Shown here piece after piece: positions 38,675-62,652 of a DNA stretch of 64,000 nucleotides. Positions within the stretch are counted from its first letter, which is position 1; each line of letters opens with the position of its first letter. Made by a program: the position numbers and the translations under genes. Location: positions 208-64,207 of the forward strand of contig JAOTTD010000001.1 of assembly GCA_029864565.1 (NCBI GenBank). The letters are read 5' to 3'. The DNA comes from Thermoplasmata archaeon (GTDB lineage Archaea > Thermoplasmatota > Thermoplasmata > UBA10834). The notes under the pieces are model-generated. The model was not told the DNA's origin and searched no databases. It saw nothing but the letters and a program-made list of their open reading frames with translations.

Positions 38675-38815
38675 CCTGGCGGGCTCAAATGCTGCTTCGT
38701 ACCCTGCACATTCCAATCATCGGGATTACATCTTCCCTGCGCAACTATTCATCTTCAAAGCAGTTCGAAAGGCCTATGATGCGACTCGGGCATAGTCGAC
38801 GAGGAGACGATATCG

Positions 38816-39601: not shown

Positions 39602-39673
39602 GACTCTCACGTCGAGAATCCTGGCACCCTTGGGAACGCTTGACAGAACGAACTGGCAGACTCTCAAAGGATT

Positions 39674-39970
39674 CTATGGCTTGAACCTGGCCAGAAAGTC
39701 ATCAATGGGGATTGCCGATAGCGTGTTCGTCTCGAGGGTTCCGCGGGAACCCAGGTCCACCATGACCTTTGAGATTGTGAGATTGTCCTGTGCTTCCAGG
39801 ATGGTGAGGAAATCGTATTCGCCGAGGAGTGCGAACTGGTGCATAACTCGTGCGCCCATCTTCGAAATCTCCTCGTTCACTTCCTTCACGCGTTCCGGCT
39901 TGGCCTTGAGTGTCTTTCGTCCTTCATCTGTCAGTTTCGACAATACGACGTACACCGCCACTTCAACCAC
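39674..39970 (-). CDS. GYD domain protein
   Basis: 98 aa. YVVLSKLTDEGRKTLKAKPERVKEV...LLGEYDFLTILEAQDNLTISKVMVDLGSRG is typical of the GYD family. Confidence 0.8.
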   Translation of the reverse strand: MVEVAVYVVLSKLTDEGRKTLKAKPERVKEVNEEISKMGARVMHQFALLGEYDFLTILEAQDNLTISKVMVDLGSRGTLETNTLSAIPIDDFLARFKP

Positions 39971-40148
39971 CTACACGACCGCATGAAAATCGTCCCTCTT
40001 ATCTCTTTTGCCGATTAGCGGTGAGCCGTCGATCCGGGTATGCAAGTCGCCCAAAGTGAGAAAATGCATCAAGGGCTGGAAATAGGAAAAGGGTTTGCCT
40101 GATCCGGGGCTTCTGATCGAGAGCAGCACACTAAGAACTGGCGTCTGT

Positions 40149-40976: not shown

Positions 40977-41861
40977 TCATGCGAGCAACCAACCAGCTGT
41001 CATTGCAGTCATCACAGCACCCATAGTGATCGCTCCAAGAATGGGCTTTGGAGTGCGCATGAAAACAAATCCAGAGTAAATCCCAAGCGGCAATGTCGCC
41101 GCCGTGGCAACGCTGACCTCTAATGGAAACAAGTCTCCCGTGAACGCGAAGACGTAGACATAGGTCGAGGCAATCACGACCATGTGCAACAACCTTGTTC
41201 GATCGCCCAGTCTAACGACTAAAGTGAGCTTACCAGATTGCCTGTCCGCCATCATGTCGGCCCAATGAATGCCCAAGAGGTTTGCCATCACGATTAAGAA
41301 AACTGGCACACACCATAAGACAGCTCTCGCAGGTATTTCACTAGTCTGAGAGGCGAGCGCGAGGAGGGGCATAAGGAACCCGCCGAGAATGGCATTGTCA
41401 AGCTCCCCCCAGCCCCGCCTTATGAGCCGCATCGGAGACATAGAATATATCCAGCCTCCGGCTAGTCCCGACACAACGACCAATCCCGTGACGGGATAAA
41501 GAATTCCTGAAGTGATGCCTACGGCCGTTAGGATCATGGCGGACCCAAATGAGACCACAGCTGCATTCAACGCCAGCGATCTAGGAACCTGCTTCGATAT
41601 GAGAACACCACTGCCTCCTGTAACTATGGTTCTTGCTGTAAGTGAGTCTGTGTCCACATCTGCATACTCGTCGGCATAGTGTGCCATCATTATCGCCGAG
41701 ATCAAAATGACAAAGCCGAGAAAGGCAGCGGCCAAATCGACCGCTCCCATTTCGTACTGTGCCATGGCCAAACCAAGGGCGTATGAAATGATGCCGGCAA
41801 CAATAATCAGAGGCCTCGCCATCTTCACTAACGCAATCGACGTTGAATAGAGCATAGCCAT
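40977..41861 (-). CDS. UbiA-family prenyltransferase
   Basis: Eight or nine hydrophobic helices. Asp-rich motif HYADEYADVDTD and a second D-rich region HWADMMADRQ. Confidence 0.8.
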   Translation of the reverse strand: MAMLYSTSIALVKMARPLIIVAGIISYALGLAMAQYEMGAVDLAAAFLGFVILISAIMMAHYADEYADVDTDSLTARTIVTGGSGVLISKQVPRSLALNAAVVSFGSAMILTAVGITSGILYPVTGLVVVSGLAGGWIYSMSPMRLIRRGWGELDNAILGGFLMPLLALASQTSEIPARAVLWCVPVFLIVMANLLGIHWADMMADRQSGKLTLVVRLGDRTRLLHMVVIASTYVYVFAFTGDLFPLEVSVATAATLPLGIYSGFVFMRTPKPILGAITMGAVMTAMTAGWLLA

Positions 41862-41864
41862 AGC

Positions 41865-42629
41865 TCATCTCCTAGAATAGTAGTAGTCGAATATCTGGTC
41901 AAGATCCCCGCCGAGTGCGTACCAAACGCGGCACTTCAGGAATTTAACAGTATGACGGATATTGCCGTGCTTCCGAAAAGCATCGGCGCTTGTGATTACA
42001 GTCTCTCGAAGAAGTCTCACCTTCCCGTGCTTCCTCATGCATTTGCCAAGTCTGACGTCTTCCATGATCGGCACATCAATAGCCTGAAGGCATCCCCTCA
42101 GGATTCCTGTTCGCAAGAATATCCCCCTGTCGCCCCAGACATCTCCCAGGACCCACGAAAAGAGGCTGCCCAATGGCAAAAGAAACTGAAGATAAGCGCT
42201 TCTTTTGTCGAACGACCTGGAGAATGCGCCACCGGCGGTCTTCGGATCCGACATGGCCTTGATTATGGCAGAATCCCAATCATTCGGCAGCGTGGTATCA
42301 GAGTGCAGGAGTAGAGATATGTCTCCTTTAGCGATCTTTGCGCCCTCTATGAACGCATATCCGCGTCCGATCCGATTGGAAACTACGACTATCTCGCTCG
42401 GTCCTTCGGGAGAGATCTTACCCACCAGTTCCGGGCTATTGATGACGATGATCAGCTCGGCGATGACATTAGAAGCATGGACAGACTCTCTGATCTGCAG
42501 AAGCCTGGAAATGCCCTCATGAACGGGCACTATGACCGATATGATTGTTCTGCCTTCATTCGGCGAACCTTTCTCAACCATATTCGCAATCATTTCCTCG
42601 ATCATCTCAACAAAGCCTTGTTCTCGCAA
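41865..42629 (-). CDS. GT2-like glycosyltransferase (rSAM/selenodomain-associated transferase 2 type, recalled as TIGR04283)
   Basis: ISVIVPVHEG...LIIVINSP...GRGYAFIEGAKIAKGDISLLLHSDTTLP, a GT-A fold with a DxD-like HSD. Confidence 0.75.
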   Translation of the reverse strand: MREQGFVEMIEEMIANMVEKGSPNEGRTIISVIVPVHEGISRLLQIRESVHASNVIAELIIVINSPELVGKISPEGPSEIVVVSNRIGRGYAFIEGAKIAKGDISLLLHSDTTLPNDWDSAIIKAMSDPKTAGGAFSRSFDKRSAYLQFLLPLGSLFSWVLGDVWGDRGIFLRTGILRGCLQAIDVPIMEDVRLGKCMRKHGKVRLLRETVITSADAFRKHGNIRHTVKFLKCRVWYALGGDLDQIFDYYYSRR

Positions 42630-43315
42630 ATGAAGCGCATTGTTCTTTGTGCGAATGAAGACTGCTCGCAGAGATCCTGGAATAGCGCGCTAAGATCATC
42701 CATTGTGTCGACATCGCTCCATTCTTGAAGTATGTGAATTTTCAGGCCTGCCCCTTCCAACTTTGATAAAGTGTCCTCGAACACCTGCGAAGTACTCCAA
42801 TGGATCCCCTCAAAAGCATCTGGAAGAAATGCGCGGCGACTGAATCCTATGAGGTAGTATCCTCCATCGGTCGAAGGGCCAATCACTGCATCGTGACCAT
42901 CGAGCGCGGAAGAGGACTCGACCAGAATCCTGACGGGCAGATCCGGCGAGTCGCTTCCAATCGCCACGACCTTTTCGAACTCCTTATTGAATGCATCGCT
43001 GAAGGCGTTCCTAAGCCTTTGTCCCATGTCTCGTCCGCGCTGAGGGATATAGGTCACGTTTGTTCCAAGCCAACTCTGAAATCCTCCCAGCTTGGTGCTC
43101 GGATAGTAGCAGATGGAAAACGGAATTCCTGATGCCTTGAGAGTCTCAATCGAATCCAGTACGAAGCAACCGTAGAGATCTATGACCTTGTCCTCTGGCA
43201 GGTTCCGTGCAAGTCTTTGCTTGACAACCCCTTTCTGCGGGTATTTCGTGAGGAGAAGAATGCATGCGTTTGATGCAGTCCCGCAATGCTCAGGATTCTT
43301 ATTTCTATCGGACAA
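42602..43315 (-). CDS. DUF2064 / CofC-like nucleotidyltransferase-fold protein (rSAM/selenodomain-associated transferase 1 type, recalled as TIGR04282)
   Basis: ACILLLTKYPQKGVVKQRLA...VAIGSDSPDLP...GPSTDGGYYLIG...WSDVDTMDDL. Confidence 0.75.
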   Translation of the reverse strand: MSDRNKNPEHCGTASNACILLLTKYPQKGVVKQRLARNLPEDKVIDLYGCFVLDSIETLKASGIPFSICYYPSTKLGGFQSWLGTNVTYIPQRGRDMGQRLRNAFSDAFNKEFEKVVAIGSDSPDLPVRILVESSSALDGHDAVIGPSTDGGYYLIGFSRRAFLPDAFEGIHWSTSQVFEDTLSKLEGAGLKIHILQEWSDVDTMDDLSALFQDLCEQSSFAQRTMRFICENKALLR

Positions 43316-44261
43316 GTGCTCCCCCGCAAGACGACCCTTGGCCCGCGGTGCAACCGAAGCAGTGGCTCTCCGTTACGATTCTCCTGCGGGAATATTGCTT
43401 TGGGTCGCAATCACGAATGTGCTGAGGTACAGAGTCATCGACCGTCAATCCAAGACCGAGGTTGAAGTCGCAGTCGTAGACTTTTCCGTCCCAACCAACA
43501 TTAATCTGGCTTCTGCACATCAGTCCATCGATGGTTTCTTTGTTGAAGGCCTTCCGTAGCAGCCAATCATACCTCTGGAAATGGCCCTTTTGGCGCAACA
43601 TCTCGTTGAAGCGGCCGACTGGCATATTAGCAATCGTGATAAGGCTATTGAAGTCAATGCCGTATTCCCTGAAGAGTATCTCCCGGTACTCCTGCTCCAA
43701 GGCAGACTGCTCTGCTGGCAGGAAATCACCCTCTGGGTTGAATACCAAATCCAGCTGAAGTTCGAGAACCCTTCCGTAGCCAGCTTTGTTGAGTCTCTTC
43801 AGAGCTTCGATGCTGCGATTGAAGACGCCATCTCCGCGCACAGCGTCGACCTCCTTTCTTAGATAGCAGGGAAGAGACGCTACGAGCTTCACTCGATTCT
43901 GCTTGAAGAAATCAATCATCGACTTCATTCTTGGCTCAATAAGAATTGTCAGATTTGTCCTGATCTGGACTCTGAAGCCTTCTGCGGACATCGCCTTGAC
44001 GAACCTCTTCAGATTAGGATTCATCTCGGGGGCTCCTCCGGTAATGTCCACAAGCTTCGGTCTGATGTCACGCGCAGCAGTTATCACGAGCTGCATGGTG
44101 TTCCAATCCATCAGCTCCCTCCTCTCGGGACCCGCCTCGAGATGACAGTGTTTGCAGCGATTGTTGCAGAGGAATCCAACATTCACCTGAAGCGTATCCA
44201 CTCGCTCCGAAAACAGCTCAGTTCCAACAGCATTCTTTATCCTCTTCTCAAAGTCATTCAT
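43305..44261 (-). CDS. radical SAM / Cys-rich C-terminal domain protein (ArsS-like, recalled as TIGR04167)
   Basis: CNNRCKHC radical-SAM cluster motif, ITGGAPEMNP, and a C-terminal DUF3641-like HCFGCTAGQGSSCGGAL. Confidence 0.85.
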   Translation of the reverse strand: MNDFEKRIKNAVGTELFSERVDTLQVNVGFLCNNRCKHCHLEAGPERRELMDWNTMQLVITAARDIRPKLVDITGGAPEMNPNLKRFVKAMSAEGFRVQIRTNLTILIEPRMKSMIDFFKQNRVKLVASLPCYLRKEVDAVRGDGVFNRSIEALKRLNKAGYGRVLELQLDLVFNPEGDFLPAEQSALEQEYREILFREYGIDFNSLITIANMPVGRFNEMLRQKGHFQRYDWLLRKAFNKETIDGLMCRSQINVGWDGKVYDCDFNLGLGLTVDDSVPQHIRDCDPKQYSRRRIVTESHCFGCTAGQGSSCGGALVR

Positions 44262-45108: not shown

Positions 45109-45353
45109 ATCCTACATCAGATACTATACTCCTCCCACCTTATTGACTTTTCTCACGTGGAATTGCCGGGGTTAGATCCTTTTCTCTTTTCTTGTCAATA
45201 TCAGATAGGTTAGCAAGGTCTCAATTCCCTCCGATAGAACCGAACCATCCGACCGGGGTTAGAGATCGCACCAAGAGAAAGAGCCATGGGAGGCGAAAGA
45301 AACCCTTAAGCCATGCCAGGCAATTCCGGCCATGGGCACGGGGGAACTCGGGT

Positions 45354-46670
45354 ATGTCAATCAGTGACTCTTCGAAGCGTCTAATGTGTTTGATGGTTTC
45401 TGCGGCGTTCGCCGTCCCGCTCTTCGCGAGCCTGGCGGCAGGAGAGGGTGAAGACGGTGCTGCAGACTGGACACTGGCGATATACCTCGACTCCGATAAC
45501 GATCTCGACTTCTGGGCGCAGGAAGACGTGAACCAGATGCTAAGCATCGGCTCCACAGAATCTGTCAACATTATCCTTCTGTGGGATACGGAGATAGGCC
45601 CTGCGCATGTCTATCACGTGCTCAAAGGAGAGCTTCGAGAGCAGGAAGACTGCGGGCTGCACGGGGTCGAGACGAATATGGGTGACTCGGAGACACTCAG
45701 AGAGTTTGTCACGTACGCCACCTCGAATTTCGAATCGGAGTACTTCCTGCTCGTTCTCTGGAACCACGGGGACGACTCCCTGGGAGTATGCTTCGACTAC
45801 GACACCGGAGCCGACGATAGCATAGACTACCTCACCCACCAAGAGGTGGTGTCAGCCCTAACCGACTACGAAGTAGACGTGCTCCTGTTTGCTGCCTGTA
45901 TTCTCGCAATGGTTGAGGTTGCCTACGAATACTACGCATCTGGAGCGGACATTGACTATGTCGTAGCCAGTGAGGGGTACGACCCGATGCCTGGCTTCCC
46001 GTGGGACACCATTCTGACGAAACTCGTTGCCCAGCCTGGCATGGCTCCACTTACGCTCGCCACGACCTTGGTTGACGAACACGTCGACTACTACAACGTT
46101 AAACACCGGGGAGAGGAGGGACCACACCAAGACGGGCAACTGGAGGATGACCCAGGAACTGCCTGGTGGTACATGTCATACGAGCACGTGACCTTCTCCG
46201 TGATAGAACTCTCCGGAATGGGAGAAGTCGTATGCGACATCAAGGACATGGCGTCTGCGCTAATCCTCGAGATGGATGAGTATGCAAGTATTGTGTCATA
46301 CGCGAGAGCGCAGGCAATCCTGCCCTGGTCCCAGAACGGCTGGGAAAGAACTGTCGACCTCCCGACGCTTGTGGAGGCTATTCGCGATCGAAGCCTCGGT
46401 GCTGTCATGTCTGCGTGCGAGAATGTGATGATGAGTCTGTCGGATGCGGTTGTCTACTATCGCAGTATAGACGAACGGTCGGGATACGAAGGTATGGGCG
46501 TACTCTTCCCCAGATCGCTCGCGATGTATGAGAATTGCCAGGTGAACGTAGGCCATTGGCCCATGCCACAATGGTCCGAGTATTACGGGCAGATGCTCTT
46601 CGTGGATGAGATTTGGCTTGACTTCCTTGACGCATATTGGAGCGCCGCGCCTTCTGGTCCATCTTCATGA
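45354..46670 (+). CDS. secreted clostripain-like C11 cysteine peptidase
   Basis: Signal-like RLMCLMVSAAFAVPLFASLAAG. WTLAIYLDSDNDLD, LVLWNHGDDSLG (His) and LLFAACILAMVEVAYE (Cys). It ends IWLDFLDAYWSAAPSGPSS. The ORF track starts at 45192 (TTG). I prefer the ATG at 45354. Confidence 0.85.
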   Translation: MSISDSSKRLMCLMVSAAFAVPLFASLAAGEGEDGAADWTLAIYLDSDNDLDFWAQEDVNQMLSIGSTESVNIILLWDTEIGPAHVYHVLKGELREQEDCGLHGVETNMGDSETLREFVTYATSNFESEYFLLVLWNHGDDSLGVCFDYDTGADDSIDYLTHQEVVSALTDYEVDVLLFAACILAMVEVAYEYYASGADIDYVVASEGYDPMPGFPWDTILTKLVAQPGMAPLTLATTLVDEHVDYYNVKHRGEEGPHQDGQLEDDPGTAWWYMSYEHVTFSVIELSGMGEVVCDIKDMASALILEMDEYASIVSYARAQAILPWSQNGWERTVDLPTLVEAIRDRSLGAVMSACENVMMSLSDAVVYYRSIDERSGYEGMGVLFPRSLAMYENCQVNVGHWPMPQWSEYYGQMLFVDEIWLDFLDAYWSAAPSGPSS

Positions 46671-46736: not shown

Positions 46737-47624
46737 TTAGGCCGAAGGCGATTCAAGGATGGGGGAATGGCGACGGTCAAGAGGGAACCATCTCTGAGTG
46801 TGATTCTCGCTCAGTTCCCACAATCTTCTGGCCAGTTCAGGGTCGTTGGACTCTTTAGAGGTCTTTGTCACCCTCCTCTTTCTGAAGCATTCTCCCGAGA
46901 TGTTCATCACGTTCTGCGAGCTAGCCAAGTAGACAGAGGTGTCTGCACCTTTCTCGGGACTGGCTCCGAACACCCTGAAGAAAGTCCTGCCAAACGCTCC
47001 TGCGTTTCTCGACAGGCCCGTGGCGACAAGCCCCGGCATCAGACAATTGGCGGTGACGCCTGTGCCTGTCAGTCTCCTTGAAAGCTCCTTGATGAAGAGT
47101 ATGTTCGCCAGCTTTGATTGCCTGTAGGCCTTCATCGCGTTGAACTTAGTTTTGAATTCAACGTCGTCAAAATTGATGGTCCCTCCATGAAGCCCCGAGG
47201 AAACACTGATGATCCTTGCTGGGCTGCTCCTCTCCATCAAGTCAAGGAGAAGGTTCGTCATAAGGAATGGCGCAAGATGGTTTACCGCGAATGTATTCTC
47301 TATTCCGTCCTTCGAAACCTTCCTTTCTCTCTCCCACGTCCCTGCGTTGTTGATCAGAATGTGCAACCTGTCGTATCTCTCCCGGAAGTTGGCGCAACAA
47401 TCATGCACAGAAGACAGAGATGATAGGTCGCATTCGAGGGAATCAATCATTTCGTTCTTGGAAACAGCTGTTATTTGGCCTCTTGTGGCCTTTCCCTTCT
47501 CGGCGCTCCTCGCCGTGAACACAACAGTTGCTCCCATCTTCCCTAACGCTAACGCTGTTTCCCTTCCGATGCCAGATGTGGCCCCAGTTATCAGGCATAT
47601 CTTGCCGCTCATCATACCTGTCAT
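46737..47624 (-). CDS. short-chain dehydrogenase/reductase (retinol-dehydrogenase-like SDR)
   Basis: ITGATSGIGRETA, NNAG and the catalytic YRQSK. Confidence 0.9.
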   Translation of the reverse strand: MTGMMSGKICLITGATSGIGRETALALGKMGATVVFTARSAEKGKATRGQITAVSKNEMIDSLECDLSSLSSVHDCCANFRERYDRLHILINNAGTWERERKVSKDGIENTFAVNHLAPFLMTNLLLDLMERSSPARIISVSSGLHGGTINFDDVEFKTKFNAMKAYRQSKLANILFIKELSRRLTGTGVTANCLMPGLVATGLSRNAGAFGRTFFRVFGASPEKGADTSVYLASSQNVMNISGECFRKRRVTKTSKESNDPELARRLWELSENHTQRWFPLDRRHSPILESPSA

Positions 47625-47832
47625 GCCATCATCGTATGTTATGACTGCAATTGTTCTTTTGCCCGATTTAGATAGGACTCGCTTCTCGCGAAGAACAAGC
47701 TCAAATCGCTTCCAGCTGAGAGAAGGCCGCGGGGAGGAGCCAAAAGATGACCCAGTAATTCAGGCTTGAATGTCGCACAAACTGAATTCCCCACTCCACG
47801 AGGAAGAGCGATGAAATCACCTACATCCGAGT

Positions 47833-47893
47833 GCAAGAGCGCCCTGATTGAAGACGAGCCATCCGTCCCGTTTCATCCAGGGTTCCCCCTGCA
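47833..47893 (+). repeat. R2 short repeat, copy X3
   Basis: GCAAGAGCGCCCTGATTGAAGACGAGCCATCCGTCCCGTTTCATCCAGGGTTCCCCCTGC aligns with 62786-62848 (GCATGTCGTACCCTCCAACCGGAGAAGAGCCGGCCATCTCGTTTCATCCACGGTTCCCTGC). Confidence 0.55.
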
Positions 47894-47966
47894 GCTCGGC
47901 CATTCTTGCCGTACGCGAATGCTGATAATCGCCTATAATTTGACGATGTTTGATATCGTCAGCCCT

Positions 47967-50900
47967 TCAGGTCGGCGGCGCCTTCCTCCTGCGGACTGCG
48001 ATGGCTACTGCTATAAGGGTGATCGCGGCCAAGGCCGCGAGTGCAATCAATAGCCACGGCATCTCCGAACCTGGGAGACCCTCGTCCGGCTGACCAGCTA
48101 TGCCGAAGAGGGACAACCCTGACACGTTGGCCCACAGATACCCCTCGTAGGACATGCCGAAGAGTTCCACATCCGTCGTGTTCACACCGGTGGTATCGAC
48201 GATGTCAGAAAGTCTTACCCATTCGCCGTCTGCCGACAGGAGGAAGAGCTGCAGCGAGCTCTCATTCAGATCCTCAGGGTCGCCCGCGTCGCCGTCGCCA
48301 TTGACGTCGAGGTCGGAGGCCGTGTAGTATATCTTAATCAGCGAGCCCGAAACGACGGCCGACAGGTCCGGATCGAGTGACTGGAACTCTATCCGAACAT
48401 ACTTATCCATCATGAGTTCGCCAGGCGCCAGGGCGTCAGACCCGGAGAGACTATCCGAGACCTCGTCGTCATGGAGCTTGTCCACTCTCACGCTGAACGT
48501 GGCCATGTTGTCGAGCTTCGTCCACACGAACGTGTCGGTGGCCCTCATGGTATCCATCTGGTCGAGCATGAAGCAGGCCCTCGGGTTCAGGTAGTCCACC
48601 ATCACGCTCCTCTCCGATACGGTCATGCGCATGCTCTTCAGGACGCCCAGTACCCGGATCCAGTCGGTGTCGTAGACGTGCGAGAGCATCACTACCGTCT
48701 GCGTCTCGTTCCACAGCCCGTACCTGACCGCCATCCGACCGTATTCCGAGTCGAGCATCTGAACAAGGACTTCACCAGAGTCCTCTAGTATTGAGTATAT
48801 GATTCCGCCCGCGGTGCCTTCGCCCGCTTCGGGGTGGCCAACGAGGACGATGTACCTCGCATCGGCATGTTCCGCCAGCAACGTATCGGGACCTACGGTT
48901 CTGACATCTGCGTTCTGCGTAAGATGCAGCGCGAACTCGGCCGAGCCTTCGATGTCGTCGTAGCAGAGTACGATCTCGTCCTCAAGCTCGAGCAGGTAGT
49001 CGAGGTCGAGTGAGTCGGGCACGCCATCGCCGTCGGAGTCGGTGCTCCTCGGATTGAGACCCAACTCCAGCTCTCTAGAGTCGTTAACCCCGTCGCCGTC
49101 CGTGTCCTCCGACAGGGGGCTCATCATTGACGATATCTCGAACCCGTCCGAGAGCTTGTCTCCGTCAGAGTCTCCGGAGGTCGCGTTGGTGTTGAACAGA
49201 ACCTCTTGGCCGTCATCGATGCCGTCAGCGTCGGTGTCTGCAGAGTTGGGATTTGCCCCGAGCTCGTACTCCTGACCGTCGAACATGGAATCCCCGTCGG
49301 TGTCTGGATTCTTGGGATCAGAGCCGAAGCCGATCTCCTTGAAGTCATCCAGGCCGTCCTGGTCGGTGTCAGGTGTGTTCGGGTCAAGGTCCAGGATGAA
49401 CTCCTCGTAATCTGTCAGCCCTTCGCCGTCGGTGTCCTGAACCTTCGGGTCACTTTCGAACTCGACCTCGGCCCCGTCCCCGAGCCCATCGCCGTCCGTG
49501 TCCCAGTGTGTCAAGTTGGTCCCGAGCTGCCACTCCTCCATGTCCTGAAGCCCGTCCTCGTCCGGGTCAATCGAACGCGGATCGGACTGCATAGCAGCCT
49601 CGTCGGGGTCGGGAACGCCGTCGGCATCTGTGTCGGGCGTCATCGGCTCGCTGCTGACCGTGAGCGAGGAAGTAGACTCCTCTGTCGTGACAGTAATAGA
49701 CCATCCGCTTTCCTCTTGGACATCGGTCAGGCCGTCGCTGTCAGCGTCGAGGAACACATAGTCGGGCTCTGCCTGAATCAGCTCCATGTCGTGAGAGCAT
49801 CTGGTCACGTTCCCCCAGCTCGCTAGGTAGATGCGATTCCCGCCGTCCACTGTAATGCCGTTGGCTGCGATGTAGTCCTCTTCAAGGCTGCACATCCATC
49901 TGCCGTCCGATGTCCATTTCTGTATCCGGCCCGCGAAATCCCCGCTACCATCAAGCGTCAGTATGTCGCCATTGACGTCGACCCTGATGCTCCTGACTCG
50001 GTCGAGAAAACCGTCCTGGGTGCCTGTCTCGCCCCACATCGTCACGAACGTGCCGTCGGGTTCGAACTTCTGAATCCTGTCGTTGTTCGTGTCTGAGATG
50101 TAGACATACCCATCCTCATCGACATCGATGTCTGCCGCGTACCATCCCAGGTCGAACTGCCCAGGTCCGGTGCCGGATTCTCCCCAAAGAGCCTCCTGCG
50201 ATATCATTTCAGTTCCATTCATCAAGAACTTGCGAACACGATCGTAGGAGTCCAGAACGTACAGATAGTACGTGTTGGGGTCCGGACCGTTGGGGTCCAG
50301 AGTCATCCCGAATATTGAGACGTCGATGCCCACGAGAACGCTGCCAGGTATCTGACTCAAGAGCGTTCCGTTTGTTGCATAGACAAGGACATCCGCGCCC
50401 GTGCATACGACCAGGAGTGTCTGGCGCTCGCCGGACAAGTTCAGGTAGATGCATTCCAACTCATCCGGCCTGTAGTCGGGGACCGGAAATCCTCCGACCT
50501 CAGTCCCGTTCTGATCGAAGACCACGACGTTGGTGGAGTTGTCTGTGTACACAAATCCGTCCTCGTCTACTGCGACGCAATTCGGGGAGTATCCCACAGC
50601 CTCGGGCACGAAGGAGGAGCTGAAATCGATATGCGTAAGATAGTAGTCCGTGATCTCGTCCTGAATGCCGTCCCCATCAGTGTCGGCACTCCTCGGGTTC
50701 AGTAGACAGTAGTACTCCTCGAAGTCGCCGATTCCGTCTCCGTCGGTGTCGCTCAGATGGGGGTCGGAATTGACCAGCCAGTAGTAGGTGTCGTTCCTGT
50801 ACGTGAAATTCACCGCCCATCCGTGATACTCGAAGAAGTCCGTGAGGCCGTCCCCGTCCGAATCAGGGCTGGAGAAGTTGTATCCTCTGGCGTGTTCGAA

Positions 50901-53900
50901 TCGGTCGTCGAGACCATCCAAGTCGGTGTCGCGTCCGTGCCGGATGCTCGGGTCTGAGCCGATCGTCAACTCGTATGCATCGCCGAGGCCGTCGCCATCG
51001 GAGTCCCACCTCCATGGATCCGTCCCAGCCGCAGCCTCTTCTGACTTGTTCAAGCCGTCCCCGTCAGAGTCGCTCGAGACCATCCCCCTCCACTCGCCGA
51101 ACTCGTCGATGCTGCCAGGCATGACGTCGAAGTAGATCGTGGTCCAGTGGGAGACCTGGGTGTCGGACGGGCTGTTGGTCTGGGACTCCCTGTCGCACCA
51201 CCATCCGAAGAACCACCAACAATCGTCGTAGTATATCCTGTAGTCGGAATACAGGCCGATGGCCACCGGGAAGTTGACCATGCCGATGCCCGGCTTAACC
51301 CAAGCCTCGGTCTCGTACAGTACCGACTTGGACGTGGATGTGTAGACGGTGGAGTTCTCGACCGTCCAGCCACCGCGCGTGGACCTAGAACCCCATGGTA
51401 CCGAAATGACCTGGTGCGGGATGATGTAGCTGTCTACGAGGTCGGAGTAGCTCCCGTCGCCGGTGATCGTCACATTGCCGTACAGCCTGCTCCGGTAAGA
51501 TATGTTGTCGCCGGCATCTATGCCGTTCCCGTCCACGTCCACGAATGACATCTCGGAGTCAACATAGGCCAAGTCGACCTCGCTCCTGGTCCTGGTGTCT
51601 GTGAAGCAGTCGATGAGCCACCCGATGAACAACCCGATGAAATCGATTCCGAAGAGCTGCAATACCATGTCCACCACGGCGATTATCATGGCGATAACCG
51701 CACCTACGGGGCCGCCGAATGCGGCCAAGGCTATCAGCGTCAGAGAGTACGCTAGCATGACTATCGAGTAGGTGACGGCGATGCCCGTTCCGACCGCGCC
51801 CCAACCGAGCTCTTCGCCTATCGCGAACAGGGCGTACAGCGAGATTCCCACGGCCAGGATCACGCCGATAATGTTCATGGCTGTACTGATGCGCTCGAGA
51901 ACAGTGGTCGAACTCGTCAGGGATTGTTTGATTGAGTTGAACGTGGTCTTGAACAGATCCCATGTGCTCTGACCGGCAGTCTTGGCGATGGTTCCGAGTC
52001 GGGCGAAGGTCTCGCAGAACGCATAGGCAGTATCGAGTATCTCGAAGGTCGTCAAGAAGATGTCTATCGACATCAAGCTGACTTCAATGATGGTCTGGAC
52101 GGTTTCGTCCAGTAGCACGACTTCCGGGAAGTCGTGGTCCACGGTCACGCCTCCGACTGATGCGATTGCGAACTCGCCACAATACCACGCCGACACCAGA
52201 CCGACCGTGGTTATCAGAGAGCTCTCGTTCAGATCCCAGGTCCTGACCTCGTCGATGACCTGGAACAGCTCGAGGGGCGTGTCGACGCCTCCGGTATACC
52301 AGCTGGAGCGGAGAACCTTTGATACGATTGCGGGTTCGCCCCTCAGGTCAATCGAAAAGGGGCCGTCGAGGACATACTCATCGGAGAGCTGTGCCAACTC
52401 GATGCCGACAGCCTCGTCTTCTATCCCGACGATTACAGGAAGAGTCTCCCCCAACGCTACGGATTCCACTGCGGAGGGGATCATTGTCGACAAGGCCTCT
52501 TGCAGGGCCTCGTCGTGGTGGGAGAAGCTTCTGATATCCGAGGTGATCGCTGTGAGGTTGTAGTCATCAAGCAACGCGGGAGTATCATGCAAGCTGTTCG
52601 ATGAATTCCTGAGGTACTCATACGCGAGAAGCAGATTGGCAGCAATCAACTGGTCGAGCTCGGCTCCGTGGAACACGCCGACGCTGGAGCCGAAGTTCTC
52701 GCTGACCTCCAGCCCTGTCAGCATGAAATCCTCGTAGTACGTAGCGAGGATAGTCGGAGATGATACGACTCCAAGGTCGGCCTCGGTGAAAGTGCTGCTG
52801 CCTTCAGACTCCGCACCATCAGCCGTCAATGCCCCGTCCGATGTAGCCGTTAGGTTGTTGCCATTGCCTGCGACGATTACGACGGAACCATCCTCACCCT
52901 TGTTGAATATGAACTCGGTATCGGCCGTTATCTCATCCGACGACGCGGATATCGACCCGTCCTGATTCAGCGTCATATAGAGGCCGTTGGAGGCCATGAG
53001 AGCGGCCCTGTCTTTCCCTAACGACATCCAGACGAAGGTCTCATTCGCCCCGATGTCATCCCCATTGGCCAGGATAGACCCATCGGGCTGAAGGCGCAAG
53101 TAGTCGCCACTCTCAGATGCGAACGCCCTGATCTCGTTGTCGTTCAGGCCGCTGACCCTCCACACTAGGCTGAGGTCTAGGGATGCGCTCAGCGGTGATG
53201 CCGTCTCGGGGAAGAACATCCTGCCCTTAAGGGCGACCATGTTGCCATATTCCCACACAGGGAACAATGGGACGAATGCCGACGACTCGTCCACTATGAT
53301 TCCATACTCCTCGACGTCTACCTGATCTGGGAGATTCTGACAGTCAATCCTCAGGGTCGGTATGATGACGACATCGTCTACAGAGCCGTCTAGGTCCCTG
53401 AACGATCCCTTCGAATCGGTGGGCCAGTCCCAACTCTGTTGCATCAGCCTCATATGGTCGGGATTGTTAGTCCTGAGCTGAAACGATGCGTAGGTAGGGT
53501 TTCCAGAAGTCTGGACTGTAATCTGGAAGTAGCTCTGGAGCGTCGTTTTGGCGAAGGGTGACAGGTCAAGATAGTCAGATACTCCATCATCATCGTTGTC
53601 AGGATCCCACGCATTTGGCAGTCCGTCTCCGTCGAGGTCGAACGTTACGTTTGTAAGTTCGCAGTAATCGGGAAATCTATCATCGTTGGAATCGGCCTTG
53701 TTGGGATCCATGCCCATGAACGCTTCGTCGTAATCGTTCAGCCTGTCGAAATCGCTATCTGGATTGAAAGGGTCGGTGCCGATGACGAGCTCAACCGAGT
53801 CGGGCAGGCCGTCGGTGTCCGAGTGATTCGTATCGTCCGTGTTGTTCATCAGCTCGCCCACGAACCTACTGAGATCCCGGAAGGCCGCCGGAATTTCGTG

Positions 53901-54068
53901 CGGGGTCTGCTGGGTGGTTGCCTCTCTCTCGTTCAAATTGCTGAGCATAGGCTGAAACGCGACCAGCATTAGACAGACTACGACTGCCAGTGAGACTGCG
54001 GCCATATAGCGGCAAGATAGCATTGCGATCCTCTCCCCAATGTGCGCTTCTTGTTTGCGGGATACCAC
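47967..54068 (-). CDS. giant (2033 aa) membrane-embedded surface protein: TSP3-like Ca-binding repeat arrays, beta-trefoil-like region, internal TM cluster, NHL-type beta-propeller, C-terminal TM anchor
   Basis: N-terminal anchor AAVSLAVVVCLMLVAFQ. Three arrays of DxDxDGxxDxxE repeats (aa about 80-170, 998-1140, 1438-1690). Threefold G-Y-L/DG-I-A repeats at aa about 310-430. Hydrophobic helices at aa about 731-821. NHL-like blades (YVYISDTNNDRIQKFEPDGTF, GRIQKWTSDGRW) at aa about 1150-1425. C-terminus LPGSEMPWLLIALAALAAITLIAVAIAVRRRK. Confidence 0.9.
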   Translation of the reverse strand: MVSRKQEAHIGERIAMLSCRYMAAVSLAVVVCLMLVAFQPMLSNLNEREATTQQTPHEIPAAFRDLSRFVGELMNNTDDTNHSDTDGLPDSVELVIGTDPFNPDSDFDRLNDYDEAFMGMDPNKADSNDDRFPDYCELTNVTFDLDGDGLPNAWDPDNDDDGVSDYLDLSPFAKTTLQSYFQITVQTSGNPTYASFQLRTNNPDHMRLMQQSWDWPTDSKGSFRDLDGSVDDVVIIPTLRIDCQNLPDQVDVEEYGIIVDESSAFVPLFPVWEYGNMVALKGRMFFPETASPLSASLDLSLVWRVSGLNDNEIRAFASESGDYLRLQPDGSILANGDDIGANETFVWMSLGKDRAALMASNGLYMTLNQDGSISASSDEITADTEFIFNKGEDGSVVIVAGNGNNLTATSDGALTADGAESEGSSTFTEADLGVVSSPTILATYYEDFMLTGLEVSENFGSSVGVFHGAELDQLIAANLLLAYEYLRNSSNSLHDTPALLDDYNLTAITSDIRSFSHHDEALQEALSTMIPSAVESVALGETLPVIVGIEDEAVGIELAQLSDEYVLDGPFSIDLRGEPAIVSKVLRSSWYTGGVDTPLELFQVIDEVRTWDLNESSLITTVGLVSAWYCGEFAIASVGGVTVDHDFPEVVLLDETVQTIIEVSLMSIDIFLTTFEILDTAYAFCETFARLGTIAKTAGQSTWDLFKTTFNSIKQSLTSSTTVLERISTAMNIIGVILAVGISLYALFAIGEELGWGAVGTGIAVTYSIVMLAYSLTLIALAAFGGPVGAVIAMIIAVVDMVLQLFGIDFIGLFIGWLIDCFTDTRTRSEVDLAYVDSEMSFVDVDGNGIDAGDNISYRSRLYGNVTITGDGSYSDLVDSYIIPHQVISVPWGSRSTRGGWTVENSTVYTSTSKSVLYETEAWVKPGIGMVNFPVAIGLYSDYRIYYDDCWWFFGWWCDRESQTNSPSDTQVSHWTTIYFDVMPGSIDEFGEWRGMVSSDSDGDGLNKSEEAAAGTDPWRWDSDGDGLGDAYELTIGSDPSIRHGRDTDLDGLDDRFEHARGYNFSSPDSDGDGLTDFFEYHGWAVNFTYRNDTYYWLVNSDPHLSDTDGDGIGDFEEYYCLLNPRSADTDGDGIQDEITDYYLTHIDFSSSFVPEAVGYSPNCVAVDEDGFVYTDNSTNVVVFDQNGTEVGGFPVPDYRPDELECIYLNLSGERQTLLVVCTGADVLVYATNGTLLSQIPGSVLVGIDVSIFGMTLDPNGPDPNTYYLYVLDSYDRVRKFLMNGTEMISQEALWGESGTGPGQFDLGWYAADIDVDEDGYVYISDTNNDRIQKFEPDGTFVTMWGETGTQDGFLDRVRSIRVDVNGDILTLDGSGDFAGRIQKWTSDGRWMCSLEEDYIAANGITVDGGNRIYLASWGNVTRCSHDMELIQAEPDYVFLDADSDGLTDVQEESGWSITVTTEESTSSLTVSSEPMTPDTDADGVPDPDEAAMQSDPRSIDPDEDGLQDMEEWQLGTNLTHWDTDGDGLGDGAEVEFESDPKVQDTDGEGLTDYEEFILDLDPNTPDTDQDGLDDFKEIGFGSDPKNPDTDGDSMFDGQEYELGANPNSADTDADGIDDGQEVLFNTNATSGDSDGDKLSDGFEISSMMSPLSEDTDGDGVNDSRELELGLNPRSTDSDGDGVPDSLDLDYLLELEDEIVLCYDDIEGSAEFALHLTQNADVRTVGPDTLLAEHADARYIVLVGHPEAGEGTAGGIIYSILEDSGEVLVQMLDSEYGRMAVRYGLWNETQTVVMLSHVYDTDWIRVLGVLKSMRMTVSERSVMVDYLNPRACFMLDQMDTMRATDTFVWTKLDNMATFSVRVDKLHDDEVSDSLSGSDALAPGELMMDKYVRIEFQSLDPDLSAVVSGSLIKIYYTASDLDVNGDGDAGDPEDLNESSLQLFLLSADGEWVRLSDIVDTTGVNTTDVELFGMSYEGYLWANVSGLSLFGIAGQPDEGLPGSEMPWLLIALAALAAITLIAVAIAVRRRKAPPT

Positions 54069-54127: not shown

Positions 54128-54487
54128 CTATCCGGCCTCTATCAGATTCGTCCACGAATGCGTGGAGGGCTCGACCAGTTCGACAAGCTCGCTCCAATAC
54201 CCGGCATATGTGCTGTCAGCTCCGTATATCTTGGAATACTCGGCGTATTCTTCCCAGCTCCCGAACTCCCACATGTCGACGTATTCGCCGAACACGCCGC
54301 CTATATGTCTGGTATACAACTTCCTCGACTTGAGCGCGGTGAACTTGTCCGGGTTCTCTTTCATGTACTGAGAGATCTTCTTAAGGACGTTCCTCAGCTC
54401 GCCGTCCTTATCGGGTTTTGCGGAATAAACGCCAATGTTGATGAATCCCACTCGCTTCACCCCCTCCTCGATCCACCCTCGAGGCAT
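54128..54487 (-). CDS. hypothetical small alpha+beta protein
   Basis: 119-aa ORF ending 60 nt upstream of the giant gene's start, on the same strand. Ordinary composition. The family is not recognised with confidence. Confidence 0.5.
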   Translation of the reverse strand: MPRGWIEEGVKRVGFINIGVYSAKPDKDGELRNVLKKISQYMKENPDKFTALKSRKLYTRHIGGVFGEYVDMWEFGSWEEYAEYSKIYGADSTYAGYWSELVELVEPSTHSWTNLIEAG

Positions 54488-54629
54488 GCGAGATAACGGC
54501 GTTATCGGATATCAATTCGTTCTCAAATATGGAGGTACGGGCTGCTCCGTCCCATCGTCGGAATACCAGACGTATGAATCAAAATCAGAGGGCTTCACGC
54601 TTGACGCATTGGTCCTCCTCGGAGAATCC

Positions 54630-55721
54630 ATGCCATTTCGTGACAAGTTTTATCACGGCAAACTGGCCTGGAGGGCCAATAGTGAGGGGGGGTTCGTGCC
54701 AGTCGAGGACGCAGTCGTTGTTGTGGACAAGCTGGAGAAGGTGTTCAGCGGCGACGTTCGGGCGGTTGACTCCATATCCTTCGAGGTCGGCCGTGGCGAG
54801 ATATTTGGGTTCCTGGGGCCGAACGGAGCCGGCAAGACGACTACGATATCCATCCTGACGACTCAGACTCTGCCAACGGGTGGAAGAGCCGAGGTGCTCG
54901 GGCACGACGTCGTCAAGGAGCCCAGCAAGGTGAGGAAGGGCATCGGCTTAGTCGCGCAGGAACTCACGGTCGACGATGAGCTGACGGGCAGAGAGAACAT
55001 GGAGCTGCAGGCGAGACTCTATGCGGTTCCCTACAGCGAGGCGAAGAAGAGAATCGACGAGCTGCTCGACCTTGTCAAGCTCGTCGACTCCGCCGACAGG
55101 CTTGTGAAGACCTATTCGGGTGGTATGAAGAAGCGTCTGGAGCTATCAGAGGGGCTTATCCACAGACCCCAAGTACTCTTCCTAGACGAGCCCACCTTGG
55201 GTCTCGACATTCAGACGAGGACCAGCATGTGGGAGCACATCAATAAACTCAAGAAAGAGACCAATATGACGATATTCCTCACGACACACTACCTCGAGGA
55301 GGCGGATGCTCTCTGCGACAGAATCGGGATAATCGACCACGGGAGGGTCATCGCGCTGGACACCCCGGAAGGCCTCAAGAAGACGGTGGGCGGGGACGTC
55401 ATCGAAATCGAAGTTGCCGAGTGCGATGAAGACATCCTCGAGGTGATCAAAGGGATGCCTGGAATAGCTTTGCTGGACGGCACGTGCACGGGCAACAAGG
55501 CGAGAATCAAGGTCCCCGACAGCAAGACTTCTCTCCCGAAGATTCTGAACAGCTTCATGTCCAAGAGGATCGACGTCGCTTCGGTGGTAATCAGGAAGCC
55601 GTCACTCGACCAGGCCTTCCTCGAGTTCACGGGCAGGGAACTCAGGGACGAGGAGTCCAACTCCAAACCCGGACACAAGGATCAGAGCACGTCCAGAGGA
55701 CGTTTCCGCAGGAGGCGGTGA
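54630..55721 (+). CDS. ABC transporter ATP-binding protein (ABC-2/DrrA type)
   Basis: Walker A GPNGAGKTT, Q-loop, signature YSGGMKKRL, Walker B VLFLDEPTLGLD and H-loop TTHY. Start taken at the ATG 54630 after GGAGA. The ORF track opens at 54435. Confidence 0.9.
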   Translation: MPFRDKFYHGKLAWRANSEGGFVPVEDAVVVVDKLEKVFSGDVRAVDSISFEVGRGEIFGFLGPNGAGKTTTISILTTQTLPTGGRAEVLGHDVVKEPSKVRKGIGLVAQELTVDDELTGRENMELQARLYAVPYSEAKKRIDELLDLVKLVDSADRLVKTYSGGMKKRLELSEGLIHRPQVLFLDEPTLGLDIQTRTSMWEHINKLKKETNMTIFLTTHYLEEADALCDRIGIIDHGRVIALDTPEGLKKTVGGDVIEIEVAECDEDILEVIKGMPGIALLDGTCTGNKARIKVPDSKTSLPKILNSFMSKRIDVASVVIRKPSLDQAFLEFTGRELRDEESNSKPGHKDQSTSRGRFRRRR

Positions 55722-58476: not shown

Positions 58477-59226
58477 TCAGACCAGCGCCACGGTTGAAAC
58501 CATGTACTCCAGCGTGCAGTCGGGGTTGTCCGTGTCCCCCTCCCCGCAATAGGTCCAGGTGGAGCAGCAGGGAAGATCAATAGTCTGGTCATCTGCCATG
58601 AGCCCGTCCAAAGGCACGTAGTCCAATATCTCGAAGTCCGCGACCTCGTTGTTGTCCACGTCCCAGACGTCGTATACTACTATCGAGAACCTCACGCTCT
58701 TGGCATCGTCTCTCAGATCGACGACGGCCTCGAAGAAGCACTCCAGGTAGTCTTCGCAATAGAACACCTCACTCTGGAAAATGATCTCGAAGTCGCCATC
58801 ACAGTCGGCGTCGACTCTAATTTCGAACCATGGATCTGGACTGTATTTGGTGCGATGACAACTTGACGTGTATCCCTCGAATTCGAATTTTACGAGCGAG
58901 ATCTTCACTCCGCCGTTACCCTCGTCCATGAAGTCGAGATTATCACCTATTCCGTCGCCATCGGAATCAAGGGTTTCGTTGGGATCATCCGGGAACGCAT
59001 CGATTGCGTCACCAACGCCATCGTTGTCAGAGTCACACCATTCGCTCGGGTCAGCGGGGAAGATATCCGTGCTGTCGGGAACGCCGTCCGCGTCGAGATC
59101 TGCGATTGACGTCAGAGGTGACATCGAAGGGCTCAGAATCGAGAACGAGAGCAGCACTACTAATGACGTCAGAAGCATGATCGAGGTGATGAAGAGTCTA
59201 CCTCCATCAAGCGCAATCTTTATCAA
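58477..59226 (-). CDS. membrane-anchored protein with TSP3-like Ca-binding repeats and a Cys-rich C-terminal domain
   Basis: Anchor LFITSIMLLTSLVVLLSFSIL. DLDADGVPDSTD, DSDNDGVGDAID, DSDGDGIGDNLD. The C-terminal domain contains 10 Cys. Confidence 0.75.
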   Translation of the reverse strand: MIKIALDGGRLFITSIMLLTSLVVLLSFSILSPSMSPLTSIADLDADGVPDSTDIFPADPSEWCDSDNDGVGDAIDAFPDDPNETLDSDGDGIGDNLDFMDEGNGGVKISLVKFEFEGYTSSCHRTKYSPDPWFEIRVDADCDGDFEIIFQSEVFYCEDYLECFFEAVVDLRDDAKSVRFSIVVYDVWDVDNNEVADFEILDYVPLDGLMADDQTIDLPCCSTWTYCGEGDTDNPDCTLEYMVSTVALV

Positions 59227-61491: not shown

Positions 61492-62652
61492 ATGGAAATG
61501 ATGAAAAGAGCGAGTAGATTATGCGTTGTGGTGCTATTCAGCGCCGCCCTCGTGGCGCCGGGGCTATTGGTGATCCCTAACGCCGCGGCAGAGACCGTAT
61601 CGTGGACTTTTGCCCTGTACGTCAACGGGGACAACAATCTTGAGGATGAGTGGGATGGAACGAGCCTCCCTCTCCTGCTGAACATACCCGCGAATTCAGA
61701 AGTCAACATTGTCGCGATGGTGGACCTGAAATCGACTGACGGTACAGACCTGGTCGAGATATCAGGCAGCAGTTGGGAGGTCGTGGACTCCTACCCGGAG
61801 ATGAACTTCGGCGATGGAGCGACCCTTGAATGGTTCATAACCGAGGTGGCCACGCTGTACCCGTCGGACAATCTGGGCATCACCATCTGGGACCATGGGA
61901 TGGGATGGATAGAATGCAGTTTCGATGAGACATCTTGGGACAGGATCCACATGCCCGAGATGAAGGCCGCGATAGAGAATGCGAACGTCTACATCGACAT
62001 CCTCTCGTTCGACGCGTGCAACATGGGCAACATAGAGGTGGCGTACGAAGCCTACACGACCGGATTGGTAGGCTACATGGTCGGCTCGGAGGAATCCGTG
62101 CCGTTCGACGGATATCCGTACGACTTCATGTGGACGCCTGTCGCCAACGACGAAACGAGGACACCGGCCCAGGTATGCGTTGATATGGTCGACGGGTGGG
62201 GGCAGTACTACGACGAGACCAGTTTCACGACCGTGAATCTCGCAGCGGTGGATGTCTCGAGCATCGGAGCATCTGCATCCGTCTTTGAGACATGGTGTGG
62301 TCTTATGCACGACAACCTGGCAGCATACGCAAAAGTGTACTCGACCGCGCTCAGGAACGCCTATGTGGCCTGGTCGACGAAGTACTTCGTGGATATGGCA
62401 GACCTTGGGGAAACGCTGCTGGCGAGCAGCAAGTTCTCCAACGCGGCTCTTAGAAGCGCTACAACCGCCATGGTCGCTGCAGTCGACGATGCCGTCCTAG
62501 CCGTCCACTCGTGCTCCGCTCTCCCGGACGCTCGAGGTCTCACCTTGTGGTGGGGCAGCAAAGGTTCCTGGAGCTATTACGGCGCATCATATATCGAAAC
62601 CCAGTGGGGCGTCGATATGGGATGGTATGATTTCCTGGTCGACTACAACTGA
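61492..62652 (+). CDS. secreted clostripain-like C11 cysteine peptidase
   Basis: Signal-like RLCVVVLFSAALVAPGLLVIPNAAA. WTFALYVNGDNNLE, ITIWDHGMGW (His) and SFDACNMGNIEVAYE (Cys). It ends GWYDFLVDYN. Confidence 0.88.
   Translation: MEMMKRASRLCVVVLFSAALVAPGLLVIPNAAAETVSWTFALYVNGDNNLEDEWDGTSLPLLLNIPANSEVNIVAMVDLKSTDGTDLVEISGSSWEVVDSYPEMNFGDGATLEWFITEVATLYPSDNLGITIWDHGMGWIECSFDETSWDRIHMPEMKAAIENANVYIDILSFDACNMGNIEVAYEAYTTGLVGYMVGSEESVPFDGYPYDFMWTPVANDETRTPAQVCVDMVDGWGQYYDETSFTTVNLAAVDVSSIGASASVFETWCGLMHDNLAAYAKVYSTALRNAYVAWSTKYFVDMADLGETLLASSKFSNAALRSATTAMVAAVDDAVLAVHSCSALPDARGLTLWWGSKGSWSYYGASYIETQWGVDMGWYDFLVDYN

Follow-up and report, generated by a model that had tools for sequence, protein, structure and literature searches.

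A giant gene with an uninterrupted reading frame

We analyzed a 64,000-nucleotide stretch of DNA from a Thermoplasmata archaeon (assembly GCA_029864565.1, contig JAOTTD010000001.1, positions 208 to 64,207; termed the window throughout), in which an earlier reading of the letters alone (the sequence-only reading) had pointed to a giant gene for a composite surface protein. The corresponding open reading frame (ORF) at 47967..54068 on the reverse strand (−) encodes 2033 amino acids (aa) from a GTG codon with zero internal stops and is, as had been stated, the longest ORF of the 64-kb window. All close homologs of its product begin at the equivalent of M16 with the sequence MLS(C/R)R (MLSCRY... 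or MLSRR...), and the motif GGAGAGGA, which resembles a ribosome-binding site, is located 7 nt 5′ of the ATG at position 54023. Because the homologous N termini agree and GGAGAGGA precedes this codon, the gene is best annotated as 47967..54023 (−), with ATG 54023 most likely being the true start of a 2018-aa protein; the mechanical ORF of 2033 aa reaches the GTG at 54068. Residue numbers are counted from this GTG. The composition of the protein is biased, with 18% D+E compared with 4.7% K+R.

Known and family-specific modules along the protein

Motif scans, profile searches and AlphaFold models divide the protein into the modules described below, whose coordinates all refer to the reverse strand (−). 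A hydrophobic segment close to the N terminus (aa 24-42; 53943..53999; Kyte-Doolittle hydropathy 2.36) is conserved in the homologs, is followed by a conserved QP, and represents either a signal peptide or a signal anchor. It precedes the first of three arrays of TSP3-like calcium repeats (aa ~80-170; 53559..53831), in which a motif scan found 4-5 repeats and the D/N/E columns are nearly invariant among 61 homologs. The adjacent segment (aa ~171-290; 53199..53558) is modeled as a β-sandwich with predicted local distance difference test scores (pLDDT) of 87-96; it contains invariant columns, among them the motif DWPxD...DLDxS...D, and has no match in Pfam.

The next module is a β-trefoil similar to fascin and CBM92 (aa ~323-415, with outer limits of about 310-415; 52824..53102), which was detected by Pfam, PDB profile and Foldseek searches as well as in the AlphaFold model. 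It scores above the Pfam cut-offs for both Fascin (PF06268; 28.7 bits, cut-off 23.1) and FRG1 (PF06229; 27.7 bits, cut-off 27), and a profile of the family matches fascin in the PDB with an E value of 4e-25. Foldseek returned an E value of 2e-9 and template-modeling scores (TM-scores) of 0.80-0.85 when normalized to the targets (Symfoil, CBM92). In the model, the trefoil sits between long β-strands of 20-26 residues.

The region behind the trefoil (aa 440-640) had been described as long helical or unknown. Here, AlphaFold confidently predicts an α/β domain instead (aa ~470-640; 52149..52661; pLDDT ~85-95), for which no match was found in PDB, Pfam or Foldseek. It leads into an amphipathic, partly hydrophobic juxtamembrane segment (aa ~648-722; 51903..52127; hydropathy 1.69), which is modeled with low confidence: its pLDDT is below 50 in AlphaFold model 1, and it forms long helices in model 2. 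Four hydrophobic helices follow in the middle of the protein and are predicted as a bundle in both models (aa ~724-822; 51603..51899; hydropathy up to 2.5; pLDDT 75-82). The helices (aa ~724-754, 758-784, 786-805 and 810-822) are connected by loops of 1-5 residues and are presumably transmembrane. A second β-sandwich, termed the post-membrane β-sandwich (aa ~823-990; 51099..51602; pLDDT 87-94), carries a DxDxNGxDxGD loop and the motif CWWFFGWWCDRES. Its residues D844 and D854 are invariant and N848 and G849 nearly invariant (≥90%) in the 61 homologs; no structural match was obtained for this domain.

The C-terminal half starts with the second TSP3 array (aa ~998-1142; 50643..51077), for which motif scans indicate 5-6 repeats and which includes the best stretch for the Pfam family TSP3_bac (aa 1000-1018). 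The segment behind it (aa ~1150-1430; 49779..50621) is predicted to form an NHL-repeat β-propeller, based on a Pfam NHL score of 22.5 bits (PF01436; cut-off 20) and on matches of the family profile to TRIM71, Thin, Brat and PknD in the PDB (E 1e-65 to 1e-27, with chains like 6d69 and 7qrx at 1e-65 to 1e-45). The third and longest TSP3 array (aa ~1438-1690; 48999..49757) contains 11 repeats according to the motif scan (aa 1441-1688), one fewer than the minimum of 12 that had been counted before, and nine of them follow an exact 22-residue period. It is succeeded by a C-terminal domain delimited by the homolog alignment (aa 1691-1995; 48084..48998), which contains a DLDxNGDGD loop and the invariant residues G55, Q101, T102, Y226, D244, E247, W261, G282 and G287 (numbered within the domain); a profile search with it matched neither a PDB sequence nor a Pfam family. 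The protein ends with a PG motif, a transmembrane helix and an RRRK tail (aa ~2003-2033; 47970..48062; helix at aa 2007-2025, hydropathy 2.91).

TSP3_bac (PF18884) was recognized in four stretches of the protein with 51.1 bits (cut-off 25), and the motif scan gave 19 matches across the three arrays. The domain order given in the sequence-only reading is borne out in nearly every item, and TSP3_bac, Fascin and NHL all score above their Pfam cut-offs. Of these modules, the TSP3 arrays, the trefoil and the NHL propeller are of ordinary type; family-specific are the β-sandwiches at aa 171-290 and behind the membrane bundle, the α/β domain, the bundle itself and the C-terminal domain.

Distribution of the family and selection on the gene

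Among 5.8 billion proteins searched, more than 100 with lengths of 2000-2500 aa align to 95-99% of the query and are 34-83% identical to it. These full-length relatives originate from metagenome-assembled genomes (MAGs) of Thermoplasmata and Thermoplasmatota, from Bathyarchaeota and from Thorarchaeota. The relatives from Methanolobus, which BLASTP covers by 46-47% only, contain the core and the C-terminal domain. When 25 diverse members were aligned, each 30-residue block of the query was occupied in essentially all of them, with the propeller being the least conserved part. The giant protein matches the family collinearly over the core, that is, the α/β domain, the four-helix bundle and the post-membrane sandwich, and its C-terminal domain displays the RxxVRYGxW..TQT motif and the GVNTTD...YxGYxWA...S.FG ending. 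On this constant scaffold, the relatives vary other modules: they may have additional ricin-B trefoils or PKD domains, a larger number of NHL blades or another type of C-terminal anchor, and the region after a conserved FGIAG motif is variable among them.

To locate the genes in genomes, one genome per GTDB species was scanned with C-terminal-domain motifs and by tblastn, based on a five-sequence alignment and a 113-aa probe. The 34 loci found belong to Thermoplasmata, Methanomassiliicoccus, many Methanolobus and other Methanosarcinales, Ca. Methanolliviera, Methanospirareceae, Bathyarchaeia and Thorarchaeota; the Methanolobus hosts include the cultured M. bombayensis DSM 7082, M. psychrotolerans YSF-03 and strain WCC5. 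Within these lineages the occurrence of the family is patchy. One member lies on a 14-kb contig (locus L015; DATKXZ010000026.1) that was binned to a MAG named “Desulfobacteria bacterium”, all others being archaeal; this contig was either misbinned or reflects a rare transfer. At least one Thermoplasmatota MAG seems to encode two paralogs, P0036 and P0100 (NCBI tags ACMUIG_05150 and ACMUIG_10330), which share a locus-tag prefix.

An exhaustive HMMER search with the core only (aa 435-1000) against 1.84 billion representatives clustered at 50% identity yielded 158 clusters at E≤1e-3, 134 of them at E≤1e-10. The core was always found inside proteins of 2000-3700 aa, and shorter matches look like contig fragments. 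Because the search finds only these 158 clusters, all within proteins of this size, the family is rare, archaeal and always giant. Its members are already deposited in public databases, where they are listed as “hypothetical” or “RICIN domain-containing” proteins. The architecture had not been recognized at first sight, and Pfam, NCBIfam and PDB searches showed that no curated family covers the whole of it, although it is shared by more than 100 full-length public proteins. No paper on this family or anything related to it was found in the literature library searched.

Among the species representatives, Thermoplasmata archaeon SG225.bin4 (locus L008) is the closest, with 94% identity in the 113-aa probe and 85% over the whole protein. 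Compared with its ortholog in L008 and with that in a further locus, L009, the giant gene shows an overall ratio of nonsynonymous to synonymous substitution rates (dN/dS) of 0.13 and 0.12, respectively, and is thus under purifying selection. The ratio is lowest in the TSP3 arrays (0.03-0.13; second array 0.04-0.07) and in the transmembrane bundle (0.08). The fastest folded module is the propeller (0.24) in the comparison with L008, and the C-terminal α/β domain (0.21) and the trefoil (0.16) in that with L009. The short C-terminal tail is also fast, with values of 0.17-0.31.

A predicted membrane-embedded core without structural match

Two AlphaFold models were used for structural comparisons. 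The larger one (aa 170-1000; 831 aa) reached a pLDDT of 84.1 and a predicted template-modeling score (pTM) of 0.67, so that the mutual placement of the β-rich domains flanking the helices is of moderate confidence. The smaller one, from which the trefoil was omitted (aa 425-1000; pLDDT 75.9), reproduced the four helices. When the 831-aa model was submitted to Foldseek, only matches to the trefoil were obtained. With the trefoil-free model, no PDB chain was found at E≤1e-3, query-normalized TM-scores were ~0.1, and a comparison with viral models gave nothing meaningful. Likewise, a profile of the core matched no PDB sequence. For the family-specific segments, Pfam and NCBIfam remained blank even at E≤10, save for sub-threshold similarities to DUF456 and to sorting tails. 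In total, ~40% of the length of the protein is without a match in Pfam, NCBIfam or PDB sequences; the comparison of folds covered the modeled part (aa 170-1000), and the C-terminal domain was compared by sequence. Judged from these models, the protein carries known modules on what appears to be a family-specific, membrane-embedded core (aa 425-1000) without structural match.

Several candidate assignments were rejected. An identity of the bundle with DUF456 (PF04306), to which the name of a single NCBI fragment had led, is contradicted by scores of 12.8-15.9 bits at a cut-off of 29.4. A PGF-CTERM/archaeosortase tail (TIGR04126) was not recognized, since PGF_CTERM gave no match and GG_III-CTERM scored 18.1 bits at a cut-off of 22; the tail of a relative also remained below the PGF_CTERM cut-off (16.1 compared with 24.5 bits). 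Searches for a class II fusogen, a pore-forming toxin or a polymorphic toxin returned no significant match.

Topology and proposed function

The protein is enriched in N-x-S/T sequons, with 28 compared with 11.9 ± 3.2 expected from shuffling; none of 1000 shuffles contained 28. They lie within aa 75-614 and aa 855-1981, that is, on both sides of the helix bundle, and TSP3 arrays are likewise present on either side. Because of this distribution, both halves of the protein are most simply placed outside the cell, which would require the bundle to cross the membrane an even number of times.

Based on this topology, we propose the following arrangement. The N-terminal hydrophobic segment would insert the chain into the membrane and a first ectodomain would be displayed, consisting of a TSP3 array, the β-sandwich, a β-trefoil lectin held on long β-strands, and the α/β domain. 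The chain would then cross the membrane via the four-helix bundle and continue into a second, larger ectodomain, in which the post-membrane β-sandwich is packed on the first ectodomain and is followed by a TSP3 array, the NHL propeller, the 11-repeat TSP3 array and the C-terminal domain. The C-terminal transmembrane helix with its basic, cytoplasmic RRRK tail would serve as a third anchor. The ~22 TSP3 repeats and the additional DxDxNG loops would bind calcium and thereby give a rigid, protease-resistant and strongly acidic scaffold, while the trefoil and the propeller could bind glycan or protein ligands of the cell's own envelope, of neighboring cells or of particulate substrates. These two modules are suggested as binders because they are of known binding types, vary among the members of the family, and are among the fastest-evolving folded parts.

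Taken together, the giant protein could well be a calcium-loaded, heavily glycosylated, multiply anchored and glycan-binding surface scaffold or calcium-dependent adhesin; we would give this interpretation an even chance. In its general form, the idea of a membrane-anchored surface protein with calcium repeats, a trefoil (lectin) module and a propeller goes back to the sequence-only reading and is supported here. The role suggested there, an adhesin or capture scaffold, is plausible. In one complete Thermoplasmata genome, the family gene is located between those for two 1300-aa β-helix/PKD surface proteins.

Apart from S-layers and pili, little is understood about the surfaces of archaeal cells. 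A large archaeal surface protein is in itself unsurprising. This one spans about 2000 aa, is conserved over its full length in four archaeal phyla and is predicted to attach to the membrane in an unusual, threefold manner; its conservation throughout archaea, its novel core and its cultured hosts make it a good target. In our judgment, the homologs in cultured Methanolobus should make genetics, surface proteomics and cryo-tomography feasible. Knowing what the protein does would reveal by what means anaerobic archaea of sediments adhere to partners or particles, or how their envelope is organized.

Comparison with known systems

The closest counterparts are uncharacterized archaeal homologs, for example the “ricin B lectin” of Methanolobus psychrophilus R15 (2120 aa; CP003083.1, 3032390-3038752) and hypothetical proteins of Thermoplasmata and Thorarchaeota. 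They share the order of the family-specific blocks: three TSP3 arrays, β-sandwich, trefoil, α/β domain, four-helix bundle, post-membrane sandwich and C-terminal domain. Unlike the protein of the window, the Methanolobus homologs have added ricin-B trefoils and lack the NHL propeller; other homologs have acquired PKD or CarboxypepD_reg domains or have replaced the C-terminal transmembrane anchor.

Among characterized systems, the protein may work most like calcium-dependent repeat adhesins and the signature domain of thrombospondins, although it is a member of neither group. The signature domain of thrombospondin and COMP joins a “wire” of type-3 repeats to a lectin-like C-terminal domain. As in these proteins, an acidic array of DxDxDGxxDxxE repeats, fixed in number and presumably calcium-dependent, directly precedes a conserved C-terminal domain. 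In contrast to these proteins, there is no Pfam match to TSP_C, the repeats are of the TSP3_bac type without the cysteine pattern, and the protein is archaeal and membrane-embedded. The best NCBIfam similarities are to CglD and MtsD, surface proteins of Myxococcus in gliding and cohesion that are implicated in adhesion and also have long TSP3 arrays. The scores are far below the cut-offs (CglD, NF033765: 95.4 compared with 400 bits; MtsD, NF047639: 68.5 compared with 800), only the TSP3 arrays align (aa 1434-1686), and the lipoprotein/VWA architecture of CglD and MtsD is absent. A similarity to the NHL region of the NHL/PEP-CTERM protein ScyF (NF035926; aa 1163-1406) also stays below threshold, with 46.6 compared with 350 bits.

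Single modules have counterparts elsewhere. The trefoil superposes with CBM92, Symfoil and fascin, but it is one module among many and has no actin context. With teneurin-like proteins, the PknD sensor and TRIM-NHL proteins, the giant protein shares the exposed NHL propeller as a binding module in a very large surface protein. The match is confined to the propeller, however; the hallmarks of teneurin/Rhs proteins are absent, with no Pfam match to a YD/Rhs shell or a toxin domain, and there is no kinase domain.

Alternative roles

Several observations weigh against a scaffold or adhesin of the kind proposed above. First, the charges flanking the bundle break a clean positive-inside rule: the preceding stretch is K-rich and the following one reads TDTRTRS, so that basic residues lie on the assigned outside. 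Because of this, the topology was derived from the sequons and TSP3 arrays and not from the helices; since the flanks are basic and the juxtamembrane segment (aa 648-722) is amphipathic and poorly modeled, the number of helices is tentative. Second, the proteins keep the same number of repeats and stay collinear over their whole length across phyla, which is unusual for adhesins, in which the repeat count normally varies; constant repeats would fit a structural or mechanical role in the envelope at least as well. Third, simple adhesion leaves the four-helix bundle in the middle of the protein unexplained. Finally, no literature on the family was found in the library searched, and no conserved neighbor in the 41 loci points to a pathway.

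A structural role could mean that the protein organizes the envelope as a spacer or anchor of fixed geometry, which connects the membrane with an S-layer or glycocalyx or sets the width of a pseudo-periplasm and whose lectin modules hold the cell's own glycans. We regard this as possible, if doubtful. It would agree with the retention of repeat number and register in collinear proteins from Thorarchaeota to Thermoplasmata, with the fact that the TSP3 arrays and the transmembrane bundle are very strongly constrained, with the three separate membrane attachments and with the many N-glycosylation sequons, and it finds an analogy in thrombospondin and COMP, whose type-3 repeats, as is generally known, wrap the C-terminal domain in fixed number. 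A core component of the envelope would not be expected to be as rare (158 clusters among 1.84 billion representatives) and as patchy within lineages as this family, however. Moreover, its hosts comprise both Methanolobus, which are known to bear an S-layer, and wall-less Thermoplasmata, and the lectin modules diversify instead of being kept constant.

The bundle is the focus of two further proposals. According to the first, which we consider unlikely, the core would be a new membrane-embedded fold, with two β-rich ectodomains clamped around the four helices, and together with the conserved C-terminal domain it would define an unrecognized envelope machine of Thermoplasmatota, methanogens, Bathyarchaeia and Asgard archaea (Thor), for example a calcium-gated device for cell-cell contact or bridging and not a passive adhesin. 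According to the second, the bundle would perform the actual work as a channel, as a device for cell-cell bridging or fusion, or as part of a contact-dependent toxin carrier, with the ectodomains providing the targeting. A membrane-active protein of this type seems improbable to us. In its favor, the loops of the conserved bundle are very short and the faces of the bundle are rich in Gly, the core fold is without a PDB counterpart, the region behind FGIAG varies in the relatives, and the hosts are sediment archaea that, as far as is generally known, often live in consortia. On the other hand, the protein has no cytoplasmic domain, and signatures of toxins, YD/Rhs repeats or fusogens were not detected, with Foldseek probabilities of 0.06-0.08 for EFF-1 and Gc. 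The teneurin-like match is via the NHL propeller only, and the variable C-terminal parts are PKD/Ig-like domains and anchors but not enzymes.

The genes around the giant gene had suggested yet another role, namely a substrate-capture scaffold that traps detrital polymers for digestion by neighboring clostripain-type peptidases, in conjunction with an ABC-2 exporter. Extracellular C11 peptidases are a noted trait of sediment Thermoplasmata that degrade detrital protein. Two genes for such peptidases (Peptidase_C11, clostripain; 45192-46670 (+) and 61492-62652 (+); E 1e-37 and 2e-36) indeed flank the giant gene within 8 kb on either side, the divergent pair of an ABC ATPase and an ABC-2 permease described next to it was confirmed, and in L008 a C11-like gene 2 kb downstream of the ortholog and an ABC ATPase gene within a few kb downstream are present as well. 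Nevertheless, the C11 and ABC genes of L008 are just 28-29% identical to those of the window (29% for the C11-like gene) and differ in order and orientation, a relative with 73% identity has wholly different neighbors, and the loci of Methanolobus, Thorarchaeota and other Thermoplasmata have neither a C11 gene nor a comparable ABC-2 pair adjoining the family gene.

More generally, no neighbor was conserved among the seven fully annotated loci of distant relatives and the 34 genome loci. Unrelated neighbors occur in the annotated loci of Methanolobus, two Thermoplasmata lineages, a Thorarchaeote and the 73%-identical relative, and even orthologs with 80-94% identity have rearranged neighborhoods. 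When ten neighbors from the window were compared by BLAST with the ORFs of all 41 loci, the only matches were an SDR gene in the two closest relatives and weak C11/ABC paralogs (28-36% identity). The small co-oriented ORF upstream of the giant gene (54128-54487 (−); 119 aa), which is present as had been reported, has no homolog in any of these loci and no Pfam match. The giant gene has no operon partners and behaves as a stand-alone unit. Because synteny is missing, the partnership with the peptidases and the ABC exporter is largely refuted, and substrate capture in their service is highly improbable; for the ABC-2 pair, co-occurrence in relatives had been proposed as a check. A pairing with the small ORF is not supported either.

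That the gene might be an assembly chimera or a pseudogene was raised solely as a way in which the sequence-only reading could fail, found no supporting evidence, and has a negligible probability, given that contigs from ENA, NCBI, JGI and Logan independently encode collinear proteins of 2008-2052 aa with 72-100% identity and that the gene has no internal stops, no DNA-level tandem repeats in its TSP3 arrays and a dN/dS of 0.12. The related concern that the repeat arrays might have collapsed during assembly was not supported: Tandem Repeats Finder reported two short, low-scoring rows in the gene, both outside the TSP3 arrays, and the register of the TSP3 repeats is identical in homologs from independent assemblies. 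For these two reasons, collapse or chimerism is very unlikely.

Other genes of the window

The SDR gene (46737-47624) is co-oriented with the giant gene and located downstream of it, separated from its stop codon by a non-coding gap of 342 bp (47625-47966). It is 86-87% identical to its counterparts in L008 and L009; in L008, it is located upstream of the giant-gene ortholog and not downstream. On the other side of the giant gene, the 119-aa ORF and the ABC ATPase ORF (54435-55721 (+)) share about 50 bp at the mechanical start of the latter, and because of this overlap the ATPase gene probably starts further downstream.

Two other proteins of the window had been described as using the same calcium repeat. 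This applies in part to the 249-aa ORF at 58477-59226 (−), which contains a hydrophobic segment at the N terminus, shows three DxDxDG-type repeats by eye (aa ~43-100) and has a Cys-rich, acidic C-terminal half; TSP3_bac did not match it at E≤0.01, and no Pfam family did so except for SUR7 at chance level. Its sole match among the loci is at the level of the repeat, in L017, and the protein encoded downstream of the Methanolobus family gene is unrelated to it. The second ORF (5209-5553) contains a single DxDxDG-type motif only.

Further away, co-oriented genes at 40977-44261 (−) encode a radical SAM protein with a C-terminal DUF3641 domain, a DUF2064 protein, a family-2 glycosyltransferase and a UbiA prenyltransferase. 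We take the radical SAM/DUF3641, DUF2064 and glycosyltransferase genes to resemble the “rSAM/selenodomain-associated” set of TIGRFAMs. The region at 38001-40000, around genes for a diphthamide-synthase-like protein and a GNAT acetyltransferase, has a G+C content of 0.49 compared with about 0.56 for the window.

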